A DNA stretch of 64,000 nt from Alphaproteobacteria bacterium (GCA_029059055.1 JAIDWS010000022.1:3433-67432), one strand, 5' to 3'; numbered from the stretch's first letter, positions 2,549 to 64,000 are shown. The notes: generated by a model from the letters alone, not told the origin. Translations and numbers: made by a program.

Positions 2549-2923
2549 TTAACGCGAATAATAACAATCACCCGTATATGTCCCGGATCCCGACGTATCC
2601 GAAAATGACGTGCCGGACGACAGATAACAATCTGTAATAGACGTAGCACGACCACCAAAAGTCGTGCCACCATCCGGACAATCCACACAAACACCAGAAG
2701 ATGGATACTGCCCATCCAAGCATATTTCCTGTAAGGGCGGCCGGATTGTTCCGCCACCACCGCCCGAACACGTCGTACAACAGTTATTCAATCCCCACAC
2801 CAGGCAATTTTCAGGATGGCCATCACATTGCATGTCATAAGGACAGGTCAGCGTTGCCACACCATGCGCACCGCCGCACATTATCATTGCCACCCCCCAG
2901 ACCAACATCAGTGATTTTTTCAT
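2549..2923 (-). CDS. small secreted Cys-rich protein (family member 1)
   Basis: 124 aa with a signal peptide (MKKSLMLVWGVAMIMCGGAHG) and 16 Cys. The C-terminal module CVDCPDGGTTFGGRATSITDCY...TGDCYYSR is shared with the other family members. Confidence 0.7.
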   Translation of the reverse strand: MKKSLMLVWGVAMIMCGGAHGVATLTCPYDMQCDGHPENCLVWGLNNCCTTCSGGGGGTIRPPLQEICLDGQYPSSGVCVDCPDGGTTFGGRATSITDCYLSSGTSFSDTSGSGTYTGDCYYSR

Positions 2924-3168
2924 TCAAACTTCCCTTTTGTTTATTTCATTAATGAAAAACCACCAAAAAATTTTTCAGGTGGTTGGAGGTTCGAAACTAT
3001 AAACTAGAATAGTGCTGCTTATTCGATATATTCAGCCGCCCTCCAACCCGCAATAACGGATGGAGTTTTTATCGTCACACCGGACGCTAGTTTAATGGGT
3101 TTCGACACCCACCCCGGGAACACCCCTGGGGCAAATTAAATTATATATCAATTGGGATTTATGAACAA
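2924..3168 (-). promoter_or_regulatory. promoter plus structured leader RNA, copy A
   Basis: Minus-strand promoter TTGTTC (3168-3163), 17-nt spacer, TATAAT (3145-3140). The leader has a 5' hairpin with loop GUGUU and a long-range helix ggttggagg (3047-3039) : cctccaacc (2989-2981). That helix encloses a hairpin with loop AAUAUAUCGAAUAAG. Terminator: aaccacc-loop-ggtggtt-UUUUU (about 2984-2955). Confidence 0.55.
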
Positions 3169-13935: not shown

Positions 13936-14031
13936 ATATTTTTCCTTTGCCCCATTATACCGCAGTTTCCCCCAAAACGTCATAGGAACGATTTTCCAAC
14001 AAAAAACGCCCGACAACGGGCGTGCGGGGCG

Positions 14032-14910
14032 TCACAATACACCGGCCATTTTGGCATACATGCGCCATATATCGACATATGGCCCCACCCCGCCCCAGGG
14101 CTTGTCATTACCGGCGTAATGCAAAATCGTATAATTATAATAATCTGTAATTAAATCCGCACGCCCCAGCCCCGCCTGTTGATACGCCGCGATATAATTC
14201 CCCGGCCCCATTTTCGCCATCCGATTAAAGCGTATCGATACATATTCAATCCGGCCACGACAAACGGAATTAATGACATCTTGGTCAAAATACCAAATGT
14301 TGCGCGTTTCACGGCGGACACGCTGCATACACTGTTCCGTCCACCCAAAGACCCGCATTTCACGCAAATTCATCACCAAAACGCCACTGTTGACATATTC
14401 GCATTTATCCACCATGGCCCGCAATCCGTATTCTGGATAATGCGCAAATTCATCGGGATATTGTTTTTCCACCGCGGCAATGTTCACATCGCGCACCGCC
14501 CCGATTAATCGACCGACCATCGGCGTACGCCACAATTCGCGCAAATCACCGGCAACAATGATATCGGAATCCAACCAAATGATTTTCCGCACCCGGGGCA
14601 ATAATTTCGGCAAAAACAACCGGGCCATGGCCGCGCGGGGAAATCGCGCCCGTCCATCGTCATAAAATTGATGTGACAGCGCGTTGCCGTTAAATTCTAC
14701 AAAATGAATCCGGGTCCGGCGCCCGGCCCGACGAACAATCTGGCGAACCAAATCCCGCATGGCGCCATGCACATTTTGGTCAACCAGACAATACACATGA
14801 TACCGCACGCCGCGCCGCGCATTATGGGCCAATGAAAAAATCGCCACCGCCGTTTGCAACCACAGATTTTCATCAAATGCAAACGCAACATTAATCCGTA
14901 CCATGACCAT
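14032..14910 (-). CDS. glycosyltransferase family 8 (LPS-type)
   Basis: INVAFAFDENLWLQTAVAIFS, WLDSDIIVAGDLRELW (DxD) and YVNSGVLVMNLREMR. ATG 14910/14904 overlaps the end of the upstream GT2 gene. Confidence 0.8.
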   Translation of the reverse strand: MVMVRINVAFAFDENLWLQTAVAIFSLAHNARRGVRYHVYCLVDQNVHGAMRDLVRQIVRRAGRRTRIHFVEFNGNALSHQFYDDGRARFPRAAMARLFLPKLLPRVRKIIWLDSDIIVAGDLRELWRTPMVGRLIGAVRDVNIAAVEKQYPDEFAHYPEYGLRAMVDKCEYVNSGVLVMNLREMRVFGWTEQCMQRVRRETRNIWYFDQDVINSVCRGRIEYVSIRFNRMAKMGPGNYIAAYQQAGLGRADLITDYYNYTILHYAGNDKPWGGVGPYVDIWRMYAKMAGVL

Positions 14911-15865
14911 ATACCAAATGTAATAAATATTGCTTGAACAAGAATAACCGTGCAAAGCGCCGCATATGCCGGGGCAACATTTTAATGTGTCGCGCATGGG
15001 CCAATAACCGACGGCGCAGTTGCGGTGCCATGATTGATTTATCCACATTGATTTCGTTCAATTCGAAATCCACAATGCAGCGCATCAAATTAAATATCAC
15101 AGAATTCAGAAAATACCGTGGCAAAGCCCTGTTTTCATCAATGCGTTCAATTACTGTCAACAATTGGTCGACCCGCCCCAGCGGCCCTGCCCCGCGGGTC
15201 ACAGAATCACGCCAAACGCGGTGATACAGAACGACCTGGTTAACCTGGACCATCAATGGGCGCATGGCCAACACATCCAGAAACCACAATAAATCTTCAT
15301 TGATTTCGATATTTTCCGGGAACCGAATATGTTTAACCATGTCCGCACGATACAAACGACGCCATGTCCATGCCACGTTATAACAATATTTGGGCAAATC
15401 TGTAAACAGATTTTCGTACAGCAACACATTCACCGCATGCGGATTGAACACCGCCGGCAATTTGGGCAACCGAAATTCGGCATGGACAGTGGTGGTGCCA
15501 CCTTCAACAATATCGGCGTTTCGCATTGACGCCCCGTGCAACATAATTTCAAATGCCGCCGGTAACAACATGTCATCGGCGTCCAAAAACGAAATCCACT
15601 GGCCGGCCGCCATATCCATTCCCACGTTACGCGCCGCCGATACACCGCGCCGCGATTGGTATACAGATTTGAACCGTTTGTCACGCCGACAATATTTTTC
15701 AATAATCGCCCGGGAATCGTCATCACTGCCGTCATCAATAATGATACATTCCCAATCGGTCACGGTCTGGTTTAACACAGATTTCAGACAGTCATCCAGA
15801 TACCGTCCATTATTGTAATTCGGAATAATCAGGGAAATATTCGGCATCAGCTTAGATATGGGCAT
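14891..15865 (-). CDS. glycosyltransferase family 2
   Basis: ISLIIPNYNNGRYLDDCLKSVLNQTVTDWECIIIDDGSDDDS...ISFLDADD. An alternative ATG at 15847 (MPNISLIIPNYNN) would give a TGATG overlap with the upstream Cys-rich gene. Confidence 0.85.
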   Translation of the reverse strand: MPISKLMPNISLIIPNYNNGRYLDDCLKSVLNQTVTDWECIIIDDGSDDDSRAIIEKYCRRDKRFKSVYQSRRGVSAARNVGMDMAAGQWISFLDADDMLLPAAFEIMLHGASMRNADIVEGGTTTVHAEFRLPKLPAVFNPHAVNVLLYENLFTDLPKYCYNVAWTWRRLYRADMVKHIRFPENIEINEDLLWFLDVLAMRPLMVQVNQVVLYHRVWRDSVTRGAGPLGRVDQLLTVIERIDENRALPRYFLNSVIFNLMRCIVDFELNEINVDKSIMAPQLRRRLLAHARHIKMLPRHMRRFARLFLFKQYLLHLVYGHGTD

Positions 15866-26658: not shown

Positions 26659-26664
26659 ACCCAT

Positions 26665-26696
26665 AAAATAACCCGCTGAATACAGCGGGTTATTTT
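26665..26696. terminator. bidirectional terminator between the array and cas2
   Basis: aaaataacccgctgaatacagcgggttatttt. Confidence 0.7.
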
Positions 26697-26715
26697 GCAA
26701 TCTCTTAAAGAAAAA

Positions 26716-27045
26716 CTAGAACATAACAAGTTGTTTTGCCCCTATCTTTTCTTGTTTTTTCGATTCGCCAACCAGTATTTCCATATCGGCAAATTGTTTT
26801 TCTGTAACTGTCATCAGTCTAACACTGCCGCGGGGCGGAATCAAGCATTTTAGGCGGCCAGCATGCTTTTCAACCTGTGCCATTCCCTTGCAAATCCGCG
26901 AATAAACAGACAGTTGCATCATATAGTATCCGTCCTTTAACAAAGCATTCCGAAATTTAGATGCCTGTTTTCTATCTTGTTTTGTTAGTGTTGGTAAATC
27001 AAAAAATACTATCATTCTCATAAATCGTTCCCCATATTGCGCCAT
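26716..27045 (-). CDS. cas2: CRISPR-associated endoribonuclease Cas2
   Basis: 109 aa: MRMIVFFDLPTLTKQDRKQASKFRNALLKDGYYMMQLSVYSRI. Its ATG overlaps the cas1 stop (TAATG). Confidence 0.9.
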   Translation of the reverse strand: MAQYGERFMRMIVFFDLPTLTKQDRKQASKFRNALLKDGYYMMQLSVYSRICKGMAQVEKHAGRLKCLIPPRGSVRLMTVTEKQFADMEILVGESKKQEKIGAKQLVMF

Positions 27046-39305: not shown

Positions 39306-39439
39306 GTTAAAATCCTGTTGTGTTTATTTCCCCATTATTTTATACTTTTTATTGAACCCACAGGGATGTGGGTTCGGGACTTAGAAAATCCCAATCATCG
39401 CGGTGGCATGCCATCGTAATCCGACCAAAATGCTGCGAT

Positions 39440-39622
39440 TTTGCGGCATATGTTACGTCCCCGACGGGTATATATCCGGCCGGGAAGCTGTTGGTTATAC
39501 AACAAGATGCCCCGGGCATCCAAAGGCCAACAGGGTCTTTCGATGATTGATTTTTCTAACTTCCCGACCACCAAGAACACTGGTGGTTTTTGTTTCATAC
39601 AAAACAAAAGGGATGAAAAATC
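39440..39622 (+). promoter_or_regulatory. structured leader RNA, diverged copy E
   Basis: Outer helix cgggaag (39481-39487) : cttcccg (39560-39566). Terminator accacca-agaacac-tggtggt-TTTT (39567-39591). The SD context aacaaaaggga is shared with copy A. The inner hairpin differs (tgttg-GUUAUA-caaca). Confidence 0.4.
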
Positions 39623-40210
39623 ATGAAAAAAACCGTCTTTATCATCGCCATGTTCATAATGGCAATCGGCTGCGCCGGGGCCAGCCATGCAGCGAATGAA
39701 ATCATCGGCACCACCTGTACAGAATCAGCATGGCAAAGTTGTCTGACCAATTATGGCGTGACATATGATTCCAGCTGTTCAAATTCCGCATGCAGCCTGT
39801 GTAACAATCGGTCATCGTCGGCGGGGCTGACGAATTCATTCGGCATTGTTACCAGCACAACATACAGATACGAAACCAATTGCCCATCATCATATGGCGG
39901 CACCGCCACGTGCAGCTGTAAACAAACCAGTTCGTCATACAAATGTGCATCGGGTTATTACGGCACAGCGACATCCAGCACCAGTGGTTGCACCGCATGC
40001 CCATCAAACGCGACATGTGCCGGCGGTAATAATTCCACATTTTCCTGTAACAAGGGATATTACAAAGACGGGTCATCGTGTTCCGCATGCCCCGGCATTG
40101 GTACATCCGCCGCCGGCGCGACATCGATATCATCATGTTACATCCCGGCCGGCACGACGTATTCCGACAGCACGGGTGGTGGGGAATACACCGCCAATTG
40201 TCCATATTAA
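39623..40210 (+). CDS. secreted Cys-rich protein (family member 3)
   Basis: Signal peptide MKKTVFIIAMFIMAIGCAGASHA. Repeats: CASGYYGTATSSTSGCTACPSNATCAGGNNSTFSCNKGYYKDGSSCSACPGIGTSAAGATSISSCY...TANCPY. Confidence 0.72.
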   Translation: MKKTVFIIAMFIMAIGCAGASHAANEIIGTTCTESAWQSCLTNYGVTYDSSCSNSACSLCNNRSSSAGLTNSFGIVTSTTYRYETNCPSSYGGTATCSCKQTSSSYKCASGYYGTATSSTSGCTACPSNATCAGGNNSTFSCNKGYYKDGSSCSACPGIGTSAAGATSISSCYIPAGTTYSDSTGGGEYTANCPY

Positions 40211-40237
40211 AAAATCCCCCGGATGGGGGATTTTTTT
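40209..40237. terminator. bidirectional terminator
   Basis: aaaaaatcccccggatgggggattttttt between convergent genes 39623..40210 and rho. Confidence 0.7.
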
Positions 40238-41504
40238 ACTGATTCATTGAACCAAAGAAATCCGCATTGGTCTTGGTCAGGCGCAGTTTATCCAACAAGA
40301 ATTCCATGGCTTCCAACGTTCCCATGGGATTGATGATACGGCGCAAGACATACATCTTGGACAGGATATCTTTGCCCACCAACAGGTCTTCTTTGCGTGT
40401 GCCGGATTTGGTGATATCAATGGCGGGATACACGCGTTTATCCGACAATTTACGGTCCAGAATAATTTCGCTGTTCCCGGTCCCTTTGAATTCTTCAAAG
40501 ATGACTTCGTCCATTTTGGACCCGGTATCGACCAGGGCTGTTGCGATAATGGTCAACGAACCGCCACCTTCGATATTACGTGCGGCCCCGAAAAAGCGTT
40601 TTGGACGCTGTAACGCGTACGCATCGACGCCACCGGTCAAAACCTTGCCGCTGGACGGGACGCATGTGTTATACGCACGTCCCAAACGCGTGATGGAATC
40701 CAGCAAGATAACGACATCCTGGCCGGCTTCGACCAAGCGTTTGGCCTTTTCAATAACCATTTCGGCGACCTGGATATGGCGCGCGGCCGGTTCATCGAAT
40801 GTGGACGAAATGACTTCGCCTTTGACGCTGCGCTGCATGTCGGTCACTTCTTCGGGGCGTTCGTCAATCAACAGAACAATCAGCTTTACATCCGGATAAT
40901 TGGTCGCAATCGAATGCGCAATGTTTTGCAGCATAACCGTTTTACCCGTACGCGGCGGCGCCACAATCAGACTGCGCTGGCCTTTGCCGGTTGGCGATAT
41001 CAGGTCAATGACCCGCGCCGACAAACTGCGTCCACGGTCTTTGTCATCGACCACTTCCATTTTCAATTGTTCATCCGGATACAGCGGCGTCATATCGTCA
41101 AACGACACGCGATGGCGCAGTTTTTCCGGTGTATCCCCGTTGACGCGTTCAATGGTTTCCAACGCGAAATAGCGTTCGGATTCGTTTTGGGGTGCCTGAA
41201 TCTGTCCTTCGACATAATCGCCGGTTTTCAATCCGTATTTTTTAATCAGTGCCGGTGACACGTACAAATCATCCGGTCCCGCCAGATAATTGCTTTCGGG
41301 GGCGCGCAGAAATCCAAATCCATCCTGCATCCGTTCCAAGACGCCGTCACCAATCAGTGTGACCTTTTTATCCGCGGCGTGCGCGCGCAGAACGGCAAAG
41401 CGTAATTGTTGCACATTCAACTGCGACGGATTTTCAATTCCCATGTCTTCTGCAATTTTCAACAGCTGCTTGGGCGATTTTGCCTTTAATTCATTTACAT
41501 GCAT
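40236..41504 (-). CDS. rho: transcription termination factor Rho
   Basis: 422 aa: [25 protein letters not shown], Walker [12 protein letters not shown], and [12 protein letters not shown]. Confidence 0.95.
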
Positions 41505-41691: not shown

Positions 41692-42147
41692 ATGGCAGGC
41701 AGCATTAATAAAGTCATTCTGGTCGGCAACATCGGCCAAGAACCCCAGGTTCGCACAATGAACAGCGGACAAAAAGTGGTCAGTTTTTCACTGGCGACAT
41801 CGGACCGCTGGCGCGACAGACAAACCGGTGAACAAAAGGAACAAACCGAATGGCACCGCGTTGTTGTGTTTAACCCGAACCTGGTCGATGTGGCCGAACG
41901 CATGTTACAAAAAGGCACCAAATTGTATATCGAAGGCGCCCTGAAAACGCGCAAATGGCAAAATCAACAGGGTGTCGACGTTTACACCACAGAAGTTGTC
42001 CTGAACCCGTTTTCCGGCCAGATGGTCATTCTGGGCGGTGCCAAGGCGATGGATGGCGGCATGTCGGGCGATTATGGCGCCGCGCCTGCCCCGGCCCCAC
42101 GCGAAGAAATTTCGGTTGCCGAAATCGGCGATGACATTCCGTTTTAA
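41692..42147 (+). CDS. ssb: single-stranded DNA-binding protein
   Basis: [37 protein letters not shown]...TEWHRVVVF, with the acidic tail DDIPF. Confidence 0.95.
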
Positions 42148-42200: not shown

Positions 42201-42476
42201 TTGCAATCATACAATTTTCACGATATAATACGCATGTCGCCGGGTGTTCCGGCGATGGGGTGTGATGACCCGTGTGATAGCGTCGGAATACTGTCATATG
42301 GCGCGCAAAATGGCGCCTGTTTTAATATTTCGATGAAAAGAAAACTCCTGAAACCCATTGGGTCAGGAGGGTTGCGAATATATTGAATAAGCACACAATT
42401 CTATCAATTGTCATCAACCTCCTGACCACCACGAAAATGGTGGTTTTTTGTTTAACAAAGCATCAGGAGATTGAAC
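42201..42476 (+). promoter_or_regulatory. promoter plus structured leader RNA, copy B
   Basis: TTGCAA (42201-06), 17 nt, TATAAT (42224-29). 5' hairpin cgccgg-GUGUU-ccggcg (42238-54). Hairpin ctcctga...tcaggag (42345-69). Outer helix 42361-70 : 42418-27. Inner hairpin loop GAAUAUAUUGAAUAA. Terminator 42425-49. SD caTCAGGAGa (42461-70). Confidence 0.6.
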
Positions 42477-42551
42477 ATGAAACAAAAATTAACGGCGATA
42501 TTGACATTGCCGATATTATTGGCATTGCCAACCGACCGCGGATACGCCGCC
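42415..42551. repeat. inverted repeat, left arm (leader 3' part plus signal-peptide codons)
   Basis: 137 bp, the reverse complement of 44058-44194, with 4 mismatches that I can see. Confidence 0.85.
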
Positions 42552-43274
42552 GGTGACGTTGGCACAACAATAAAATGCAGCAACGATGCCAGATGTACAA
42601 ACTATGTCGCGTCCACATACAGTTATGGGGGGACAAAAGAACCCACAACCACACTATGCGATACCAATACATATGGATATTGTTGGCTCTGGGGCGACCT
42701 GTGCGTATCAAACGGTTTCGGTAATGATACACCGGGTTACTGCACCCAACGCTGTGCAGAACGGGGTTACGATATCTTGGTCTATGACATGAATAACAAT
42801 TACGAATGGGGATGCGCCTGTGTTCGGGATACATCATTCCAAGAATGGCAAAAATACAGCACCAGACGTATGCAAAAATATACCCCCACATACCGCAACG
42901 ACATGACCGCTGGGAAATGCACCGTCACCGCCACCCCGACCGGCGAATATCGATGCGCGGCCGGATATTATGGCACCGCAACATCAGAATCCGCCTGTCT
43001 CGCATGTCCCACCAACGCCACATGCAGCGGGGGAACCACATTTATGTGTAATGTCGGCTATTACAGAAATGCCGCCAAAACCGGATGCACCAAATGTCCA
43101 GACAGCAAAACCGCCGGCTTGGGATGGGACGCCAATGGAAATGGGGTTGCGGCCGTGGGCGGCGGTGATGATATCAGCTGGTGCGCCATTGCATCTGGGA
43201 CCGTGTTACACGATAACACCGGAACGTTCATTGTGGACCCCGACAATGAACTGACGGATGGGTGCGAATATTAA
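42477..43274 (+). CDS. secreted Cys-rich protein (family member 4)
   Basis: ATG at 42477, 6 nt after the SD; the track's TTG at 42471 is less likely. Signal peptide MKQKLTAILTLPILLALPTDRGYAA. Repeats: YRCAAGYYGTATSESACLACPTNATCSGGTTFMCNVGYYRNAAKTGCTKCP...LTDGCEY. Confidence 0.75.
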   Translation: MKQKLTAILTLPILLALPTDRGYAAGDVGTTIKCSNDARCTNYVASTYSYGGTKEPTTTLCDTNTYGYCWLWGDLCVSNGFGNDTPGYCTQRCAERGYDILVYDMNNNYEWGCACVRDTSFQEWQKYSTRRMQKYTPTYRNDMTAGKCTVTATPTGEYRCAAGYYGTATSESACLACPTNATCSGGTTFMCNVGYYRNAAKTGCTKCPDSKTAGLGWDANGNGVAAVGGGDDISWCAIASGTVLHDNTGTFIVDPDNELTDGCEY

Positions 43275-43313: not shown

Positions 43314-44132
43314 TTAATAAGTTTGATATTCGCATCCGTCATTCGCGTCATCGGTAATGACAAATGTGCCGGTGGCGTCATGCAGCACCGTTCCCGCGGG
43401 AATACTGCACCATGACAATTCGTCCACACCACCCACGGCGGCCACGCCATTTCCATTGGCATCCCATCCCAGACCGCCCGTTTTGCTGTCTGGACATTTG
43501 GTGCATCCGGTTTTGGTGCTGTTGATATAAAATCCGTCCTTGCATGAAAATGTGGAATTATTTCCACCACGACACGTCGCGTTTAACGGGCATACGGTGC
43601 ATCCGGTGCGGTCCGATGTGGCGGTGCCATAATATCCGGCCGCACATCGATAATTATCGGTGGTGGTGGCGGTGACGGTGCATCCTGCGCCGGATGAACC
43701 GCTGGAATATGTTGGTTTATATTGCCGCATGTACCCACTGTTGCCGGCAACGGCGCGCCATTCTTGGAATGACGCGGATTGAAAACAGGCACACCCCCAT
43801 TCGTAATTGTTATTCATATCATAGACCATAACATCATAACCCGCATTTGCGCAGTTTTGGCTGCACACGTTATATGCGTCGTGGCCGGAACCATTTCCCA
43901 GACACACCCCATCCCACAACCAACAATATCCACTGCCACCAGCGGTACATGGCGCCGTTGTGGTACTCTTGTCACCAAATTTGTGATAAGATGCGCCGAC
44001 GTATTTTGTACAACTGTCCGCATACGCACATTTTTCCACGATATTCACTTCCAAACTGGCGGCGTATCCGCGGCCGGTCGGCAATGCCAATAATATTGGC
44101 AATGTCAGTATCGCCGTTAATTTTTGTTTCAT
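43314..44132 (-). CDS. secreted Cys-rich protein (family member 5)
   Basis: ATG at 44132. Its signal peptide differs from member 4 at a single residue (PTG vs PTD). Repeats: YRCAAGYYGTATSDRTGCTVCPLNATCRGGNNSTFSCKDGFYINSTKTGCTKCP...ANDGCEYQTY. Confidence 0.75.
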   Translation of the reverse strand: MKQKLTAILTLPILLALPTGRGYAASLEVNIVEKCAYADSCTKYVGASYHKFGDKSTTTAPCTAGGSGYCWLWDGVCLGNGSGHDAYNVCSQNCANAGYDVMVYDMNNNYEWGCACFQSASFQEWRAVAGNSGYMRQYKPTYSSGSSGAGCTVTATTTDNYRCAAGYYGTATSDRTGCTVCPLNATCRGGNNSTFSCKDGFYINSTKTGCTKCPDSKTGGLGWDANGNGVAAVGGVDELSWCSIPAGTVLHDATGTFVITDDANDGCEYQTY

Positions 44133-44194
44133 GTTCAATCTCCTGATGCTTTGTTAAACAAAAAACCACCATTTTCGTGGTGGTCAGGAGGTTG
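44058..44194. repeat. inverted repeat, right arm
   Basis: Reverse complement of 42415-42551. Confidence 0.85.
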
Positions 44195-44408
44195 AGAACA
44201 ATTAATGGAATTGCACTGCTTATTGAATATTCAGCAGTCCTCCTGACCCAAAAACGGGTATGTTCAGGAGTCTTCGCCGGCACATATCAAAAACGGCGCC
44301 AATCGCGCGCCATCATGGTATTCCGACGCCATTAAAGAGGTTCTCACGCCCCATCACCGGAACCCCCGGTGACATAATAATTATATGCCGACGGTGCAGT
44401 TAATGCAA
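44133..44408 (-). promoter_or_regulatory. promoter plus structured leader RNA, copy C
   Basis: Minus strand: TTGCAT (44408-03), 17 nt, TATAAT (44385-80). 5' hairpin tcaccgg-GGGUU-ccggtga. Inner hairpin actgc-UGAAUAUUCAAUAA-gcagt. Its 3' third is near-identical to copy B. Confidence 0.6.
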
Positions 44409-44449: not shown

Positions 44450-47400
44450 TCAGAATCTGTACGAACCGGATATCTTAATCTGATGCAACTGCATTTCCGT
44501 ATTATATTGATACCGGTAATCCAGACCAACCTGGACCCCGCTGGCCGACAGGATTTCCACCCCGCCCCCTGCGTTGGCCCACAACGGGTCCAAATCAATG
44601 TCATATGTGGTATACCCGCTGGCCGGTGCGAATTTGTATTTCGCGTGGTTCGGCGCACCCAGCAAATCGTATTCCACACCCACCGACAGATACGGGCGAA
44701 TCTGGAACCACGGCCCCGGATAGATACGCTTTTGCGCAATCAACGAATACCCCGGTGTCAACATCATGTATGCATCGGATTCCAATTTCATGTAATCGCT
44801 GCCGGCGGCCTTTTCGGTGACAGAAAATCCCGAATTGACGCCCACACGTGCATACAGATTGCCCACCAGATACTGGTTCAACCAATCATGCAGCAATCCC
44901 CATTCCGACGTCAATGCGAACGCGGTACCACTGCCATCGATGGACGCGACATAATTCTGTTCGCGCGACACATCCAACAGGTGCAAATCCAGATATGCGT
45001 TTCCATACAGACGCATCTTGGTCCCCAATGTCTTCATCAAATATCCGCCCAGGCCGATGTCTGTATCCGCCACGTCAACCTTGACATGTCCGGCGATATG
45101 CTGGCCGGGTTTATAGCCCAATTCCATGCTGTCGGAATTGTCGGACGACATGTGGGACACGCGGCCGGTCACACCCAAAATCAGTGTCGGATTTTCCTGC
45201 CAATCAAAACCACCCGATACGCTGAACCGGTCGCCACTGACACGTTTGCCATCGGATACGCGCTGATTAAACATGCCGAAATCCGCATCCAACCATGCCT
45301 TTTTCAAATTACGGTGACGATTCCAGATGAATTCGTCGAACATACGATCTTCGAAATTGCGGAAATTGGTATGTTCGTTCATCACGATATGACCCGCAAT
45401 TTGTTCGATTTCACGCGGCTGGAACAAACGGCTGAACCGGGCCAATCCACGACCATCGCGCGATGTGTTGTAATATTCCATGCGCTGATACAGTTCCTGG
45501 GCCATTTCCGCCATGTTTGTGTTTTTAAAGATTAACGGAATCGCTTCAATCGGTGTCCGGTTAAAGAATCCGGTCTGGGCCAATTTACCCGCAATCAATT
45601 TGTCCAATGCCCCCGCAGAAACATGTTCACCGGTGGTGTGGTCGCCTTCGCGGTCAACGATGGGCTGAATCTTAAAGACTTCGACCGGGCCACCGAAACG
45701 CGGGTCAAACACGATGTAAATGCTGTCCGGCACGCCGTCGCCATCGGTATCACGGACCGACAGAAACGCCGGCAAATCCAACCCGTCAACGCTGCCGTTA
45801 TTACCGGGCTTAATCGCGTCCAGATAATCAAAGCACATTGAACCGTCCGCATTACAGAACTTTACGAACAAATTGCGCATCTTTAACGCCAATTCTTCCA
45901 GGCCGCCGTCCGCATGCACCAACCAAATGGCATCGCCCTGGTCAACCATGTCAAAGATATCAATGCCAATTTGCGGATTGGTCAATGCCCCACCGTTAAT
46001 CGACGTACCCAAATCTGTAACATTGGAAATGAATTTCCCATTGACAGAAATCAAGGGTTCCGCCCCAACCGGATTGGTAATCTGGCCCAATGTGTTGTCA
46101 TTGTTCAGACTGACCGATGCCCAATAATTGCGGGTGGTCGCCGCCGGCGGCATGATGGCCGCGTGCAACAAACTGTCGGTGTCAAACGTATATGCACCAC
46201 CAACGGTCATTTCTTTTAATCCCACAAATCCAACGCCACCGGATACATCACCATCCACGTTAACCGTCAACCAATTGTTGTTGATTGTGCTGTCTTTGCC
46301 CTGGGCATAGACACGCAGATGTGATGCCAAAATACTGCCGTGGACATCCAAATCACTGGTGTTCAGGGTCATGCTGCCGGATTTTTGCTGAATCCCGTTT
46401 GTGATAACGTTTGATGCCGTAATGGTGTACGCATCCCCAATAACATTCGCATCACCCGCAGACGCCGATGTCATATTCTGTAACAAACGTCCCGCCAATG
46501 TAAACGCCCCGGTCGAATTCATACCCTGGCCCAGCAAAGTTGCCGAACCACCGGTCAATGTAAAGCTGGTGACGTTGGCCAAATCCGCCCCCGAATCCAG
46601 CGTCATTGTGCCCGCCATCCCGTTCACAACATCCAATGTCATGCCGTTTTGTGCGGTCAATGTCAATGTACCCGCATTCGTGACGTTGGCGGCGGTAATC
46701 GTTTTGGCCGAAATATCGGCGTCTGCGACGCTGACAACAATGATGTCGCCGGCAATCGTCGCCGCATCTGCGATGCGGTAATCCGCCGATAAGCCATTCG
46801 CCCGGAATGCCCCGTCAACGACCAAATTCTGGGCCGTGACGACCGAATTGTTACGCGTAATATTCAATACGCCACCGGTACCGCCAATCCCACTTTGGAC
46901 CAAATCGCCCGCCACGGTAATATTATTGGTCGCGGTAATCGTATTAACGTTCAAATTGGCATAACCACCGGTTACAGACAAATTATTCAGATTCCACGAC
47001 GTCCCCGTCACATCCAACGCGCCCGCCGTGGTCGACACCGCCGCAGACTGCATCGTGCCACCAGACATGGTAAATGCCCCGCTGTTGGTGATGCTGCCGG
47101 TATTGATGGGCCCGGAATTCTTGGCCGTGATGGCAACACTGCTGGTGTTTGTAATATCTTGGGTTGTGATGCTGGCCCCGTCAATGGTCAATGTCCCGGA
47201 ATTATCAATATCATTGGCCGATGTCACCGCACCGTTGGCATTGATATCCAATGTTCCCTGGGCATTTTTAACCAGCCCCGCCAACGTCACCGCATCACGC
47301 GAATTCAACGTCAATTTGTGTCCCGACGATATCGACATACCGCCGGCAATATTCATAGAACCACCGTTTCCGGTTGTGGCCAATGTGACATTGGTCGGCC

Positions 47401-49675
47401 CCGTGATAACCATACCCGACGTCGGGTTTGTTCCGTCAAACCAGATACCGCCCGCGATATCAATGGCGTTTGTATTTGCATCCGACGCATCAATCGTGGC
47501 ATTTACCGACGCGGATGACCCGTGCAAGATAAATTTGCCATTGCCGCCCAGACTGCCGACATCAATGTCCGCCACCGCCAGGTCGATTACCCCGCCGTCG
47601 CGCGCCGTCAACGCACCGGTTACATTCAAATTGGTGGCCAGATTACCGCCAAAAATCAATGCACCACGATTCGCCGCGGTGACATTGCCACCCACGTCCA
47701 GCGTTTGCGCATCAAAGCTGATGGTGCGCGCCATATCGTTTTCAATTGCGGAAATATTGCCGCCAATGTTAATTGCGTCGGTGGCCGTCATGACAAAGGT
47801 CTGGGGGCCGCCCGCCGCAATATTCACATTACCCGCGTCCAGAACCGGTGTCGCCGCCGCCGTAACATCACCCGCGATGTTTGCCGTGCCGGTAATGGCG
47901 ATTTCATGCGTGGCGTCGCCGATGTTCAAATCACCGCCGGTTACATTCAAATTATTGGTCACAGATACCGACCCGGTCAACGCAGTCAAATCCACCACGC
48001 CGCCCGATACATTCAAACCGCCCAGCGTTACCGCCCCGCCGGTCTGGTCAGACCCACGGATGGTCATGGTACCGTCGGCATTTGTAACCACGCCGTCAAT
48101 TTTAATCTGGCGCGATTCAATTTTCATTGTGCCACTGTTGGTGACGGTGCCGGTAATTGAAATATCCCCCGGCGTATTGGTATACGCATCAATCGCCATG
48201 TTCCCGACGTTCGACACCGTATTCAAGGCAATTTTTTGCCCGTTGATGTTCATGGTGGCCGTCGTGCTTTCATTCGCGACCGCACCGCCGACCGTTATGG
48301 TCCCATCGGCAATTAAATTCGTGGTTCCATCCCCACGGGCGGTCACACCCTGGGCCACATTAATGGTACCGGCACCGGCGTTGGCGGCGGTAATATTTAA
48401 ACTGGTACCGGAATTGGTAATGGAATTGGCTGTAATCGCCTGGGCGGCCAACATCATATCCGCATTGGCGTTTGTATCCCCGTTGATAATATCCGTCGTC
48501 AGGTTTAATTCCCCATTGCGCACGCGCACAATAAACGAATTCAAATTATTTGTAAACAATGCCAACCAGTTGTCATCCGACAAATTGGTCCCGAATCGCA
48601 ATGTACCGGTATCCAATTCAAACGTATTGGTATTCGGCATTGTGGTCAAATCGAACCCATTTTCCAGATATGTTTCACCGGTAACGTTAATGGCCAAAAT
48701 CCCCTTGTTCACCAAGGATGCGTCATTATGCGCCGAATCGGTCCCGGCCACGTTCAGGGACGTACCACTGATTTTCATTGTGCCGCCATCCGAATCGTTT
48801 TTCATGGTCCCGGACACCGTAATGGCACCGGCACTGGTGATTGTCATGGACGCGTTACCATTGGCATCAATCCCAGAATTTTCCACACTACCCGTCACAT
48901 CAATTCCACCGGTGGTTGTGGTGATATTCATACGTCCCGCCTGGTTTTGAATACTGCCCTGGGCGATGATATTGCCGGCGGTGATATCGGTATTTCCGGT
49001 ATGCGCGACAACAAAGTTCCCAGACGCGTCTGTATCCGCCAGATAGCTGCCATTTGTATATTGGCCCATAATCATTTGACCGGCGGCATTGATGGTAACG
49101 TCGCCCTGGTCATTGGCCAAAGTTCCCATTTTAATCGTATTGGCGTTAATGGCCAACGTACCGGCATTGGTCACACTGCCGGTGCCGGCGGTCAAGACGT
49201 CCCCGGTCCATGTTCCGACCGTTAACGCATCAATATTATTTAATGTCAATGACCCCTGGTTATCAATACTGCCCAGGGCGGCATTAATCGCGGCCACAGA
49301 CGTATTGTTGGGCAATTCCAGGGTCAACGCGCGACCATTTAAAACGCGCAATACGCCGCCAACCGACAGCGCGCCTTCGCTTTGCAGTGTAAATGACAGA
49401 TTGGTATTCGTCGCAATCAGCAATTGCCCGGTATCGGCACCAATATAATCTTGGCCGGCAATCATATCACCGGTAACAGAAATACCGCCGGTCCCCACAA
49501 CCACACCCGCGGGGGTTTGGTTATAACTGTTCCCCTGGATAATCACACTGTCGGTGTAATTAATGCCCGCCTGGTCCGGAATTAATCCGTCCGCCCCGGG
49601 TTCCAAATAAACAGGCGCCGCAACTGCACCAACCGGCAACAGGCAGCAAACAAAAGAAATTAGCTTTTTTATCAT
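44450..49675 (-). CDS. very large autotransporter (type Va) adhesin-like protein
   Basis: 1741 aa from ATG 49675. Signal peptide MIKKLISFVCCLLPVGAVAAP. A Cys-free passenger of about 1400 aa carries degenerate beta-helix-type repeats (G-T-L/I-x-I/V-N...). The C-terminal beta-barrel domain ends in ...KISGSYRF. Confidence 0.85.
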   Translation of the reverse strand: MIKKLISFVCCLLPVGAVAAPVYLEPGADGLIPDQAGINYTDSVIIQGNSYNQTPAGVVVGTGGISVTGDMIAGQDYIGADTGQLLIATNTNLSFTLQSEGALSVGGVLRVLNGRALTLELPNNTSVAAINAALGSIDNQGSLTLNNIDALTVGTWTGDVLTAGTGSVTNAGTLAINANTIKMGTLANDQGDVTINAAGQMIMGQYTNGSYLADTDASGNFVVAHTGNTDITAGNIIAQGSIQNQAGRMNITTTTGGIDVTGSVENSGIDANGNASMTITSAGAITVSGTMKNDSDGGTMKISGTSLNVAGTDSAHNDASLVNKGILAINVTGETYLENGFDLTTMPNTNTFELDTGTLRFGTNLSDDNWLALFTNNLNSFIVRVRNGELNLTTDIINGDTNANADMMLAAQAITANSITNSGTSLNITAANAGAGTINVAQGVTARGDGTTNLIADGTITVGGAVANESTTATMNINGQKIALNTVSNVGNMAIDAYTNTPGDISITGTVTNSGTMKIESRQIKIDGVVTNADGTMTIRGSDQTGGAVTLGGLNVSGGVVDLTALTGSVSVTNNLNVTGGDLNIGDATHEIAITGTANIAGDVTAAATPVLDAGNVNIAAGGPQTFVMTATDAINIGGNISAIENDMARTISFDAQTLDVGGNVTAANRGALIFGGNLATNLNVTGALTARDGGVIDLAVADIDVGSLGGNGKFILHGSSASVNATIDASDANTNAIDIAGGIWFDGTNPTSGMVITGPTNVTLATTGNGGSMNIAGGMSISSGHKLTLNSRDAVTLAGLVKNAQGTLDINANGAVTSANDIDNSGTLTIDGASITTQDITNTSSVAITAKNSGPINTGSITNSGAFTMSGGTMQSAAVSTTAGALDVTGTSWNLNNLSVTGGYANLNVNTITATNNITVAGDLVQSGIGGTGGVLNITRNNSVVTAQNLVVDGAFRANGLSADYRIADAATIAGDIIVVSVADADISAKTITAANVTNAGTLTLTAQNGMTLDVVNGMAGTMTLDSGADLANVTSFTLTGGSATLLGQGMNSTGAFTLAGRLLQNMTSASAGDANVIGDAYTITASNVITNGIQQKSGSMTLNTSDLDVHGSILASHLRVYAQGKDSTINNNWLTVNVDGDVSGGVGFVGLKEMTVGGAYTFDTDSLLHAAIMPPAATTRNYWASVSLNNDNTLGQITNPVGAEPLISVNGKFISNVTDLGTSINGGALTNPQIGIDIFDMVDQGDAIWLVHADGGLEELALKMRNLFVKFCNADGSMCFDYLDAIKPGNNGSVDGLDLPAFLSVRDTDGDGVPDSIYIVFDPRFGGPVEVFKIQPIVDREGDHTTGEHVSAGALDKLIAGKLAQTGFFNRTPIEAIPLIFKNTNMAEMAQELYQRMEYYNTSRDGRGLARFSRLFQPREIEQIAGHIVMNEHTNFRNFEDRMFDEFIWNRHRNLKKAWLDADFGMFNQRVSDGKRVSGDRFSVSGGFDWQENPTLILGVTGRVSHMSSDNSDSMELGYKPGQHIAGHVKVDVADTDIGLGGYLMKTLGTKMRLYGNAYLDLHLLDVSREQNYVASIDGSGTAFALTSEWGLLHDWLNQYLVGNLYARVGVNSGFSVTEKAAGSDYMKLESDAYMMLTPGYSLIAQKRIYPGPWFQIRPYLSVGVEYDLLGAPNHAKYKFAPASGYTTYDIDLDPLWANAGGGVEILSASGVQVGLDYRYQYNTEMQLHQIKISGSYRF

Positions 49676-49773
49676 ATTTTTTTGTTTAATTCCGATTACA
49701 ATTGTGCTTACATTATGGCACATAATTTGTTTGTTAGCCAAGCAAAAAGTAATCGCAAGGTGTAAAAATATAG

Positions 49774-51147: not shown

Positions 51148-51312
51148 ATGGCGACAGCCATCGTACTGGGGATTATGTTGGCGCCGGCATACCTGGCCCG
51201 CGTTGCAGGCCGGGGAAAATACGACATGTTGTTGGTCCGAATTTACAGCTGGCTGTTCGGGTGGACCGGTATCGGTTGGTTGATCGCCCTGTTTTGGGGC
51301 ATCAAAAAATAA
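51148..51312 (+). CDS. small membrane protein, superinfection-immunity (Imm)-like
   Basis: 54 aa from the internal ATG. It has two TM segments and GWTGIGWLIALFWGI, the GW..GW...ALxWA pattern as I recall it. Confidence 0.45.
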   Translation: MATAIVLGIMLAPAYLARVAGRGKYDMLLVRIYSWLFGWTGIGWLIALFWGIKK

Positions 51313-51338
51313 TCCCGCCACGGCGGGATTATTTTTTT
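51309..51338. terminator. bidirectional terminator
   Basis: aataatcccgccacggcgggattattttttt. Confidence 0.65.
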
Positions 51339-52236
51339 ATTTATCTGTGTCCCACAGACCAAATCGCGTAATATAATTGAACGATATACCGATGATTATA
51401 TTACTGCCATAAACGTCGGCACCACGCGATTTTGCCAAACGATACTGGACATACGGCCCCATTGTGAAATTGCCCCACAAATTTGTATCCATGCGTAAAA
51501 CCGCACTTAAATCGCGTTCCAAATCCGTGCTGACATACCGGGAATAATCCAAATATTCACGATAATATCCATTGGTTGATAATTTGACGCCGTCGCGAAT
51601 TTTGTATTCAACGCGCCATCCCAATTCCACCCCCAGTTTACTGGTCTGGGCATGGGGAAATGTGAAATCATATTCATGCACGCCGGCCAAATACAAGCTT
51701 TTCAACACATGGTGGTCAAACAAAGAAATCCCGGCATTCGAACGAACAATATTTTGGCGCGGGTCACCAACAAATTCTGTTTCATATTGCACACCGACGG
51801 TCGGTCCAAACTTAAACCCGCCAAATTCCCAACATGCGTATGACAAATCCGTGGACAGCAAAATTTTGTCTGCGTTTTCGTCCGATGTTTCCGGCCCGTC
51901 ATACGGTTTCAGGGTTGTCTGGCCGTATTCCATAAACAGGCTGTTATCCCATTTGAATTTGTTCTTGCGATATTCCAGCGCCATATCGCCAATTCCCTTG
52001 ATAAAATCTTGGCTGGTGGCTTTTAATGCCTGGATGGGCGAATCCGTATATTCTGCGGTATTTCGTACCTGGGTTTTGGACAATTCCAACCCAATACGAC
52101 GGATATTCAGGAATAAAACCGTTTCACGTGCCTTTTTCGCGGCCGCATCTGCATCAGCCGCCGCAGTTTCATCCGCCATGGCCATGCACGGCATCATCAA
52201 CGCCATAAAAAATAAAGCTATTTTTTTCACTTCCAT
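51337..52236 (-). CDS. secreted protein, probable outer-membrane beta-barrel
   Basis: Signal peptide MEVKKIALFFMALMMPCMAMA and alternating aromatic/hydrophilic beta-strand patterns (GVQYETEF, GVELGWRVEYKI, GPYVQYRL). No family assignment. Confidence 0.5.
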   Translation of the reverse strand: MEVKKIALFFMALMMPCMAMADETAAADADAAAKKARETVLFLNIRRIGLELSKTQVRNTAEYTDSPIQALKATSQDFIKGIGDMALEYRKNKFKWDNSLFMEYGQTTLKPYDGPETSDENADKILLSTDLSYACWEFGGFKFGPTVGVQYETEFVGDPRQNIVRSNAGISLFDHHVLKSLYLAGVHEYDFTFPHAQTSKLGVELGWRVEYKIRDGVKLSTNGYYREYLDYSRYVSTDLERDLSAVLRMDTNLWGNFTMGPYVQYRLAKSRGADVYGSNIIIGISFNYITRFGLWDTDK

Positions 52237-63497: not shown

Positions 63498-63872
63498 TTA
63501 CGCCCCCGCGTCCGCATAAGCGGCCGGCACGCGCACCAAATCATCGGTCAGCCGGGCGATTATTTTTACCTGGTCCGGCGTCATCTTGTACAGATTCTGC
63601 ATAATGTGCATCAGTTTCGGGTCCTGGGTATATTCAGAATCGGCTTCTTGTAAAAATTGTCCCATGGGAATTCCGAGACATTTACACATATCATACAGAC
63701 GTGATACTGCCATGCGGTTGCCCGCGCATTCATATTTTTGCACCTGTTGAAACGAACATCCCATCGCCGATGCCAAATCTTTCTGCGACAGACCGTGCCG
63801 CGCACGATGCAATGCGATTAATCGTCCCAAACGCTTATCAAAATCGGTTAAAACCGTGCTTTTTCCTGACAT
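63498..63872 (-). CDS. XRE-family helix-turn-helix transcriptional regulator
   Basis: Internal ATG at 63872 gives MSGKSTVLTDFDKRLGRLIALHRARHGLSQKDLASAMGCSFQQVQKYECAGNRMAVSRLYDMC. The track's longer start would translate the leader RNA. Its stop abuts the polA stop. Confidence 0.8.
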   Translation of the reverse strand: MSGKSTVLTDFDKRLGRLIALHRARHGLSQKDLASAMGCSFQQVQKYECAGNRMAVSRLYDMCKCLGIPMGQFLQEADSEYTQDPKLMHIMQNLYKMTPDQVKIIARLTDDLVRVPAAYADAGA

Positions 63873-64000
63873 GCCGCCCCCATATTTATACATATAAAAA
63901 TCCGCCATATACATATAAGGCGGGTTGGAGTTGAGAACAACTATAAAACAAATTGCCTGGCTTATTGGATATTCACCAGACTCCAACCCAACACAGGTCA
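63873..64000 (-). promoter_or_regulatory. structured leader RNA, copy D (5' part beyond the window)
   Basis: Minus-strand sense ...gggttggagt-ctgg-UGAAUAUCCAAUAAG-ccag-...-actccaaccc, then terminator ccgcc-ttatatgtatat-ggcgg-AUUUUU. It is collinear with copy A. Confidence 0.5.

Follow-up and report, generated by a model that had tools for sequence, protein, structure and literature searches.

The 64,000-nucleotide (nt) stretch of DNA analysed here, taken from Alphaproteobacteria bacterium (GCA_029059055.1 JAIDWS010000022.1:3433-67432) and called the window throughout, carries on its minus strand, at 3168..2924, a leader (copy A) in front of a cysteine (Cys)-rich gene, which raises the question of what kind of RNA this leader specifies and how that RNA relates to the gene behind it. 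On balance, comparison of its sequence with its homologues leads us to regard leader A as a cis-acting regulatory 5' leader with two mutually exclusive folds, its RNA being a divergent relative of sRNA-Xcc1 (RF02221).

Copies and structural conservation of the leader RNA

We found that a covariance model made from 36 B-type cores of other genomes, holding no A-type and no window sequence (R1), matches copy A at 66.0 bits (E-value 7.6e-15, covariance-model E-values being rough) in a window scan run with filters off, and that this match is well beyond chance. An earlier sequence-only reading had taken A for the same RNA as copies B and C with different helices, and the detection of A by a model built without it bears this out. 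With copy A as the query, nhmmer and blastn yielded four further copies, B to E. The nhmmer alignment of A to B reaches only 39 bits, in keeping with the earlier view that the copies are not recent duplicates, and the match of E to A in nhmmer and blastn is confined to the 3' part. The further copies, which differ in the outer helix P1 of a three-way junction (P1-P2-P3), are as follows:

44133..44408, minus strand: copy B, B-type, 97.1 bits with R1, before a 272-amino-acid (aa) Cys-rich open reading frame (ORF; 44132..43314)
42201..42476, plus strand: copy C, B-type, 87.5 bits with R1, before a 265-aa Cys-rich ORF (42477..43274)
63873..64000, minus strand: copy D, with an A-like P1 (GGGUUGGAG/CUCCAACCC) and its 5' part beyond the window end, before a Cro/C1-type helix-turn-helix (HTH) ORF (63872..63498)
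39318..39622, plus strand: copy E, E-type, with P1 GGCCGGGAAG/CUUCCCGACC, a long P2 and an extra hairpin, before a 195-aa Cys-rich ORF (39623..40210)

Copy D scored 48.0 bits with R1 (E-value 3.5e-10) and 58.9 bits in a later search; copy E scored 22.9 bits with R1 and 36.4 and 45.5 bits in later searches. A candidate sixth copy at 14096..13997 (minus strand, 21-22 bits) was rejected, since it lacks a promoter and a 5' domain and lies over the 3' end of the ORF at 14032..15048 and the terminator of that ORF, and a match at 26663..26774 (minus strand, 18.5 bits) is merely a terminator. Antisense matches at 42428..42336 and 44181..44267 are not separate copies and arise because three segments of the leader (seg1, seg2 and seg3, located below) are mutually complementary.

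One scan of the GTDB species genomes with the B-type P1 pattern returned at least 118 loci, and across the fetched loci (numbered L001 onwards) R1 found about 150 distinct copies, after three Planotetraspora loci and one Nitrososphaerales locus had been removed as false positives of the DNA pattern. The copies fall into three subtypes by P1 sequence: B (GGUCAGGAGG/CCUCCUGACC), A (GGUUGGAGG/CCUCCAACC, with the variants GGUUGGGGG/CCCCAACC, GGUUGGAGA/UCUCCAACC and GGUUGGGAG/CUCCCAACC) and E (GGUCGGGAAG/CUUCCCGACC and GGUCGGGGGG/CCCCCCGACC, with a longer P2). The outer helix of A is accordingly unlike that of B and C, as had been read. The 5' domain of the leader is described by the pattern GATGGGGYGTGAN{8,16}GCGTCGGAATA. 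The order of promoter, leader, 25-40 nt and start codon recurs in about 140 cases, and the homologue alignment places its own promoter and terminator with every copy. Among the listed loci, the hosts are nearly all metagenome-assembled genomes (MAGs) of Candidatus Enterousia, gut Alphaproteobacteria and 'Rickettsiales'. Enterousia belongs to the order Rs-D84, whose genomes are below 1 Mb with strongly reduced metabolism and lack the tricarboxylic acid cycle, respiratory chains and standard transporters (PMC12306168). Typical B-type leaders were also seen on three contigs labelled Bacteroides fragilis (L055, L057 and L078), most likely mis-binned Enterousia-like contigs.

Upon examining the helices in the main alignment (78 rows, 77 distinct sequences, fitted to the model), we observed double-sided changes in 21 of the 25 core pairs; paired cells amounted to 95.2%, compared with 24-57% when the partners were slid, and no shuffle reached any of the five covariation measures. 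Between A and B/C, P1 changes by whole pairs (CG to UA at 5:160, AU to GC or UA at 6:159) and so does P3 (AU to UA at 104:139), while all six pairs of P2 show double-sided changes across the family. Since the 78-row alignment was fitted to the model, the fold was repeated without it: 15 A-type cores, aligned by MAFFT alone, were given to RNAalifold, which returned P1, P2, P3 and the terminator hairpin T2, with 13 of 21 pairs compensated; the same junction and terminator thus persist across the divergence, as the sequence-only reading had proposed. That reading had also named its own undoing, namely helices that could not be aligned or that rose no higher than background. We saw the opposite, both in the R1 match and in covariation against controls.

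The 5' domain behaves similarly in 27 B-type leaders, where RNAalifold gives an 8-bp H1 stem with seven of eight pairs compensated and also predicts H2, an H3 stem with an inserted GC hairpin, and the alternative hairpin P0. Inspection by eye gave no consistent covariation for a pairing of the H1 and P2 loops. Against dinucleotide shuffles, the fold z-scores of A are -3.0 for the core and -3.7 for the whole leader. Furthermore, G-U pairs are many on the sense strand and would become C-A mismatches on the opposite strand, which argues for structure at the level of RNA. Comparison across copies thus indicates a conserved structured domain backed by covariation, of the kind expected of a riboswitch.

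Competing pairings in leader A

In the full-length minimum free energy (MFE) fold of A, the P1 5' arm is bound to the upstream segment seg1, not to the P1 3' arm. The elements of the leader, with coordinates and sequences given on the minus strand as for leader A throughout, are the following:

3163..3168: -35 box TTGTTC, at the place where about 40 homologous leaders have their TTG.. -35 boxes
3140..3145: -10 box TATAAT, after a 17-nt spacer (aligned homologues)
3112..3131: hairpin H1, CCCCAGGG/CCCGGGG with loop GUGUU (sequence reading, fold)
3097..3110: hairpin H2, GGGU-GUCGAA-ACCC (full-length fold)
3073..3086: short hairpin H3, CGUC-CGGUGU-GACG (fold, homologue alignment)
3057..3065: seg1, CUCCAUCCG, 5' arm of the alternative hairpin P0 (full-length MFE pairing, duplex energy)
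3040..3048: seg2, the P1 5' arm GGUUGGAGG, resembling a Shine-Dalgarno (SD) sequence (core fold, models, alignments)
3014..3038: hairpin P2, GCUG/CAGC (3036-3014), with loop AAUAUAUCGAAUAA containing the conserved GAAUAU..AAUAAG (core fold)
2996..3013: hairpin P3, ACUAU/AUAGU, which is ACAAU/AUUGU in B-type copies (core fold, alignments)
2990..2995: junction J3/1, UUCGAA (R1 alignment)
2981..2989: seg3, the P1 3' arm CCUCCAACC, anti-SD-like (core fold, models)
2955..2984: terminator hairpin T2, AACCACC..GGUGGUU followed by UUUUU (sequence, fold)
2923..2936: seg4, SD AAGGGA and spacer to the first base of ATG (sequence, fold)
2549..2923: putatively regulated ORF, 124 aa with 12 Cys and a signal-peptide-like N terminus, ATG at 2923, ending in the C-terminal module ..ITDCYLSSGTSFSDTSGSGTYTGDCYY

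The minus-strand promoter TTGTTC-17-TATAAT that had been proposed is present (3168-3163 and 3145-3140), with a putative transcription start near 3133, and the GUGUU-loop hairpin, the GAAUAU..AAUAAG-loop hairpin and the terminator can all be found in A. The -35 box agrees with the consensus at three of six positions, and a simple promoter and terminator scanner called neither element on copy A, for which reason both rest on their conserved position in about 40 aligned homologues; the T2 loop of A has 13 nt, above the scanner's loop limit of 8 nt. H2-equivalent stems in homologues (GGGG/CCCC, GAGG/CCUC) covary. At the H3 position, copies B and C and those of the E type have a GC hairpin inserted, with a U run behind it. 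A indeed lacks the GGCGCGC..GCGCC hairpin of B and C; the 4-bp CGUC/GACG stem that it has there (3086-3073) corresponds to the base of the longer B/C helix. The inserted hairpin (window 42280-42330, plus strand; 44300-44350, minus strand; B- and E-types generally) is followed by GUUUUUA, which gives it the look of another intrinsic terminator, upstream of T2 and within the leader, or of a pause site there. An A-rich linker joins H3 to seg1 in leader A, and the SD context aacaaaaggga recurs, as noted before, in copy E (39603-39613).

Seg1 and P1 compete for the same strand. In leader A, P1 pairs GGUUGGAGG (3048-3040) with CCUCCAACC (2989-2981) and so closes the junction, and in P0 seg1 takes CGGGUUGGAG (3050-3041) as its partner, at a duplex energy of -11.5 kcal/mol. 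Across 148 leaders the seg1:seg2 duplex averages -15.7 kcal/mol; permuting the partners raises this to -14.0 +/- 0.11, and shuffling the upstream sequence to -8.3. In every subtype (B, A, E) seg1 makes a more stable duplex with its own P1 arm (-12.8 to -16.0) than with that of another subtype (-9.1 to -11.5). Because each subtype's seg1 suits its own P1 arm, the three segments covary as a triple, which we read as the mark of two competing helices.

The terminator shares sequence with the same helix. In the 112 leaders analysed, T2 is a GC-rich hairpin with the U run directly behind it (mean 7.8 bp, -9.8 kcal/mol), and in 105 of them, from all three types, its stem overlaps the P1 3' arm by 3-6 nt (mode 4), the shared pairs sitting beside the U run; in copy A the lowest 4 bp of T2 (AACC) are the end of that arm. 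This arrangement would make P1 an antiterminator and P0 an anti-antiterminator. Additionally, J3/1 and the P1 3' arm are complementary to the SD and its spacer as far as the first base of the start codon, pairing UUCGAACCUCC with GGGAAGUUUGAA in A, UCAACCUCCUGA with UCAGGAGAUUGA in B and C, and UUCAAGCCUCC with GGAGGUUUGAA in L009. The cognate seg3:SD duplex averages -12.4 kcal/mol, versus -11.3 +/- 0.14 for permuted pairs (0 of 200 permutations reach the observed value), and within the B type -12.7 versus -11.85 +/- 0.12. When B-type leaders are folded up to T2, P0 and P1 are close to 50:50, and when the SD region is included P0 together with seg3:SD dominates. In these computations, the predicted structures exclude one another and overlap the sensor helix, as a riboswitch platform would require.

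From these helices, their covariation and their overlaps, we infer which way the leader switches, that transcription ends at T2 and that an effector exists. In the OFF state, seg1 (CUCCAUCCG) would pair with the P1 5' arm to form P0, setting free the P1 3' arm, whose last 4 nt would complete the base of T2 beside the U run; should transcription read through, the junction and P1 3' arm (UUCGAACCUCC) would bind the SD region (GGGAAGUUUGAA). In the ON state, the P1 arms would pair and close the P1-P2-P3 junction with its conserved loop nucleotides, so that T2 would lose its lowest 4 bp, leading to antitermination, and the anti-SD strand would be drawn off the SD. By analogy, the secreted Cys-rich gene would come on once something stabilised the junction; a small molecule, a protein and an RNA are all conceivable.

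Several points weigh against this scheme. On the structural side, there is the fitting of the main alignment to the model; B-type P1 is invariant because the retrieval pattern fixed it, so that P1 covariation rests on 22 A- and E-type copies; and the relatedness of the copies does not enter the permutation tests. Between J3/1 and the spacer after the SD, fixed-register covariation is weak, with one position above permutation, and because this test was largely negative the case for SD pairing is built on duplex energies. Forcing P1 leaves seg1 free, and the SD is then predicted to bind this segment, so that thermodynamics alone yields no SD-open state; for the A type, forcing P1 costs about 9 kcal/mol relative to the MFE. 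Among the 139 downstream genes we found no shared metabolic or transport theme that would point to a ligand, and Cys-rich and Cro-like HTH targets point to no metabolite. The SD predicted as paired in both folds, together with gene functions that imply no ligand, would equally suit a static element that does not switch, such as a 5' stabiliser, a constitutive attenuator of costly secreted proteins or a fixed protein-binding platform. We consider such an element improbable, since the three-way covariation of seg1, seg2 and seg3 and the conserved P1/T2 overlap are hard to explain unless both folds are used, and at the point of termination P0 and P1 differ little in energy.

The hairpin logic (1:2, 2:3, 3:4) also resembles that of trp-type attenuators, in which case translation of a short ORF could select between the hairpins. 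An AUG occurs at the H1/H2 boundary of some copies, and one leader is overlain by a public 108-aa gene call, yet we found no conserved leader ORF with a start codon and SD. The AUG is missing from A and from many homologues (A has GGGU-GGGU, others GAAC-GGGG or GGGC-GAGG), it has no preceding SD, and the frame closes early in B and has another length in C. Selection by a leader peptide is thus scarcely credible, and the two-fold regulatory leader remains the reading that we favour. The gene call itself (L001 2100-2426, plus strand) sits wholly over the leader RNA and is probably spurious, because its frame is not conserved in B or C.

Genes and genomic context behind the leaders

Of the 139 ORFs surveyed downstream of the leaders, 113 are signal-peptide-like at the N terminus (median Cys content 7.8%), and the signal-peptide-like Cys-rich proteins have no Pfam domain; the 124-aa ORF behind leader A likewise has no Pfam match. 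Copies B, C and E precede Cys-rich secreted ORFs, and small Cro/C1-type HTH proteins lie behind at least six A-type leaders, D included. Roughly half of the complete proteins, across all three leader types, end in a module of about 30 aa, I(T/S)xCY(I/L)PxGTxFSDxTGSGTYTxNCYY(T/S)N, with examples in the window at 2549-2650 (minus strand) and 39623-40210 (plus strand) and in L009, L014, L023, L059, L088, L114 and others. Outside this module the proteins are hypervariable, and a second group ends in ..FSNLSD. Neither the module nor the FSNLSD end matches Pfam; the module could be a sorting or anchoring domain.

The proteins have few relatives. Protein A has a single one, 94% identical, and for protein B 5.8 billion proteins yielded only 13, one of them, from 'MAG: Alphaproteobacteria bacterium', being identical; on the contigs of the protein B relatives the same leader stands upstream. 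Copy A lies between a ygjP-like gene and hisS, in an order kept in a sibling strain. Between the two strains (the window versus L132 and L133), leader A is identical save for homopolymer lengths in the T2 loop (GAAAAAUUUUUU vs GAAAAAAAUUUUU, window 2965-2976, minus strand), which might tune the terminator or reflect slipped-strand variation. The ORF shows about 13 nt changes in 372 and the ygjP-like gene 13 in 699, and the leader is therefore conserved more than its ORF. The association of leader and gene is not universal, since L006 has a homologous Cys-rich gene without such a leader.

A hypervariable multigene family, a T2-loop homopolymer whose length varies between strains, and the presence of sRNA-Xcc1 in integron cassettes (bioRxiv 10.1101/2025.06.18.660453) could by analogy suggest a DNA-level site of recombination or gene conversion that shuffles Cys-rich cassettes. 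This is very improbable: the pairing is strand-specific, as the G-U pairs indicate, the helices are altered by compensatory substitutions instead of being copied intact, a promoter and a terminator accompany every copy, and copy A keeps its place between the housekeeping genes ygjP-like and hisS in the sibling strain. One conserved leader RNA stands before a large, fast-evolving family of secreted Cys-rich proteins, five times in the 64-kb window and about 150 times, counting distinct copies, in the retrieved loci. Because one leader precedes so many such genes, its sequence context makes the RNA a likely master control element of the surface or secreted repertoire, which bears on gene regulation and on host or partner interaction in the reduced Rs-D84 genomes.

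Other features of the neighbourhood were also observed. Copies B and C adjoin ssb and rho: ssb lies directly upstream of copy C (window 41692-42147, plus strand) and of the leader in L001, L005 and L006, and rho (40236-41504, minus strand) flanks copies C and E. Directly upstream of copy B is a 1763-aa ORF without a Pfam match (44450-49741, minus strand), versions of which (1741-1747 aa) stand beside the same leader in L001, L002 and L005. A Thr_leader-like Rfam match at 51304-51413 (minus strand; 31.8 bits against a gathering score of 55) is probably a terminator upstream of the ORF at 51337..52236.

Relation to sRNA-Xcc1 and to other regulatory leaders

At gathering thresholds, Rfam finds only three tRNAs in the whole window, and in a whole-window E-value scan the weak sRNA-Xcc1 match is lost because filters are stricter on long input. 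In small-window scans, sRNA-Xcc1 is the top match over its full length (1-87), at 37.9 bits for A and 35.9 bits for each of the E-type copies in L058 and L043; copies C and D have no Rfam match at E <= 10. The gathering score of 53 bits was reached by none of the tested copies, and an element on a Providencia IncC plasmid (L128), the positive control, scores 73.4 bits. In the reverse direction, and with one member in a 2.5-kb search, the bona fide Providencia element is the top match, at its exact coordinates, both of R1 (12.9 bits, E-value 0.015) and of R2, a model built from all three subtypes (20.3 bits, E-value 4.8e-4). P1, P2, P3 and J3/1 of A align onto the sRNA-Xcc1 model, and the bona fide member aligns likewise onto R1 and R2. 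Taken with the alignments, these weak reciprocal matches point to a probable but distant kinship, and formal membership fails.

Both families have the three-way junction with a 9-10-bp G-rich P1 (GGUCGGG../..CCCGACC) and two inner hairpins, the 6-nt J3/1 UUNNA(A/G), a CACC/GCC tail, an upstream stretch complementary to the P1 5' arm, and several copies per genome (for sRNA-Xcc1, PMC12189769). They differ in P2, where the A and B types have the loop GAAUAU..AAUAAG and sRNA-Xcc1 an AUACAA..GAA internal loop with an extra hairpin; E-type copies alone have UUAUA(U/C)AACAG, a hairpin and AAAG in P2. Unlike sRNA-Xcc1, the family described here has a 120-170-nt 5' domain (H1-H3) and a P1 with SD-like and anti-SD-like sequences. 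It is chromosomal, among housekeeping genes, and its targets are mostly secreted Cys-rich proteins, whereas sRNA-Xcc1 occurs in integron cassettes, phages, plasmids and genomic islands with Rha, BRO, anti-repressor and SymE genes. In the L128 element, the only sRNA-Xcc1 checked in this respect, no U run follows the 3' hairpin and an anti-SD match is missing.

sRNA-Xcc1 was first found in a Xanthomonas campestris integron as a ~100-nt RNA with mapped ends (PMC2996969) and has been described as a trans-acting small RNA (PMC2996969; PMC12189769); published placements are upstream of symE and of an ORF6N gene. We found bona fide sRNA-Xcc1 30-45 nt upstream of co-oriented Rha, BRO or anti-repressor genes on four unrelated replicons (the Providencia plasmid, an Stx2 phage, a Pseudomonas plasmid and an Arsenophonus plasmid). 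The upstream complement to the P1 5' arm is present in three of these four canonical loci (L128, L129 and L131); for L130 another, weaker pairing is predicted as the best. L128, L129 and L131 also have upstream hairpins in common (GGUGCUGAACACACC, and another with a U run and ACCCGAU; L128 1100-1330, others ~820-1040), which can pair with P3/J3/1 and the P1 5' arm. This suggests that canonical sRNA-Xcc1 elements, too, are parts of larger leaders. On the Providencia plasmid, ssb likewise lies upstream (L128 499-1047); this adjacency of ssb and leader may be a coincidence or a shared ancestral arrangement.

These placements bear on whether the short transcript ended at T2 is itself a trans-acting small RNA, gene proximity being incidental or secondary and the dozens of copies, with their SD-like and anti-SD-like segments, perhaps titrating one another or a shared factor. 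The conserved hairpin and U run of T2 fit such an RNA, as do the mapped ends of sRNA-Xcc1 (PMC2996969) and the fact that, within a subtype, the seg1 and seg3 of a copy find their complements in the seg2 and SD of others. We nevertheless consider it unlikely, if less so than a static element, because the spacing to the start codon is conserved, the SD pairing is specific to the cognate gene, bona fide sRNA-Xcc1 shows the same placement before co-oriented genes, and the P0/P1/T2 overlap has no obvious use in a stand-alone small RNA.

A cis-acting leader with two folds, the reading that we prefer, offers a testable cis-regulatory interpretation of sRNA-Xcc1, which is annotated in many pathogens, phages and plasmids. 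The sequence-only reading had overlooked this kinship as well as the P0 pairing, the SD complementarity and the size of the family in Candidatus Enterousia-like genomes. The findings also matter for annotation, as spurious ORFs are called over the leaders and Rfam thresholds miss the leaders entirely. More speculatively, the leader could define a new class of ligand- or factor-sensing riboregulator, with dozens of copies per <1-Mb genome, that coordinately switches on a hypervariable Cys-rich secretome and small Cro-like regulators in Rs-D84 gut symbionts; sRNA-Xcc1 of phages, plasmids and integrons would then be the sensor domain of a cis-acting switch and not primarily a trans-acting small RNA. 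We put this forward tentatively and hold it to be rather doubtful.

Among known systems, Clostridioides difficile has multi-copy cyclic di-GMP (c-di-GMP) riboswitches before genes of surface and secreted proteins, and the present family has in common with them the many leader copies per genome and the surface or secreted protein genes; Rfam scans gave no sequence or structure match of the leader to the c-di-GMP-I and c-di-GMP-II families, nor to any other riboswitch family in Rfam. The trp leader and the PyrR-controlled pyr leaders are three-hairpin attenuators, whose order of anti-antiterminator, antiterminator and terminator, with overlapping segments 1:2, 2:3 and 3:4, recurs here. Unlike them, the leader has no conserved leader peptide, and its antiterminator is a whole three-way junction; a PyrR-type binding motif was not identified in the leader, no search having been aimed at one.

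The pbuE (ydhL) adenine riboswitch is an ON-type transcriptional riboswitch with a three-way-junction aptamer. The leader has in common with this type its place in the 5' untranslated region behind its own promoter, and a P1 3' strand that is also the 5' strand of the intrinsic terminator, because of which a stabilised junction would act as the antiterminator. It differs from pbuE in that the junction strands are nearly absent except for J3/1, and in the additional layer formed by the anti-antiterminator P0 and SD sequestration. The scheme proposed for leader A would thus combine an ON riboswitch of the pbuE type with a three-hairpin attenuator.

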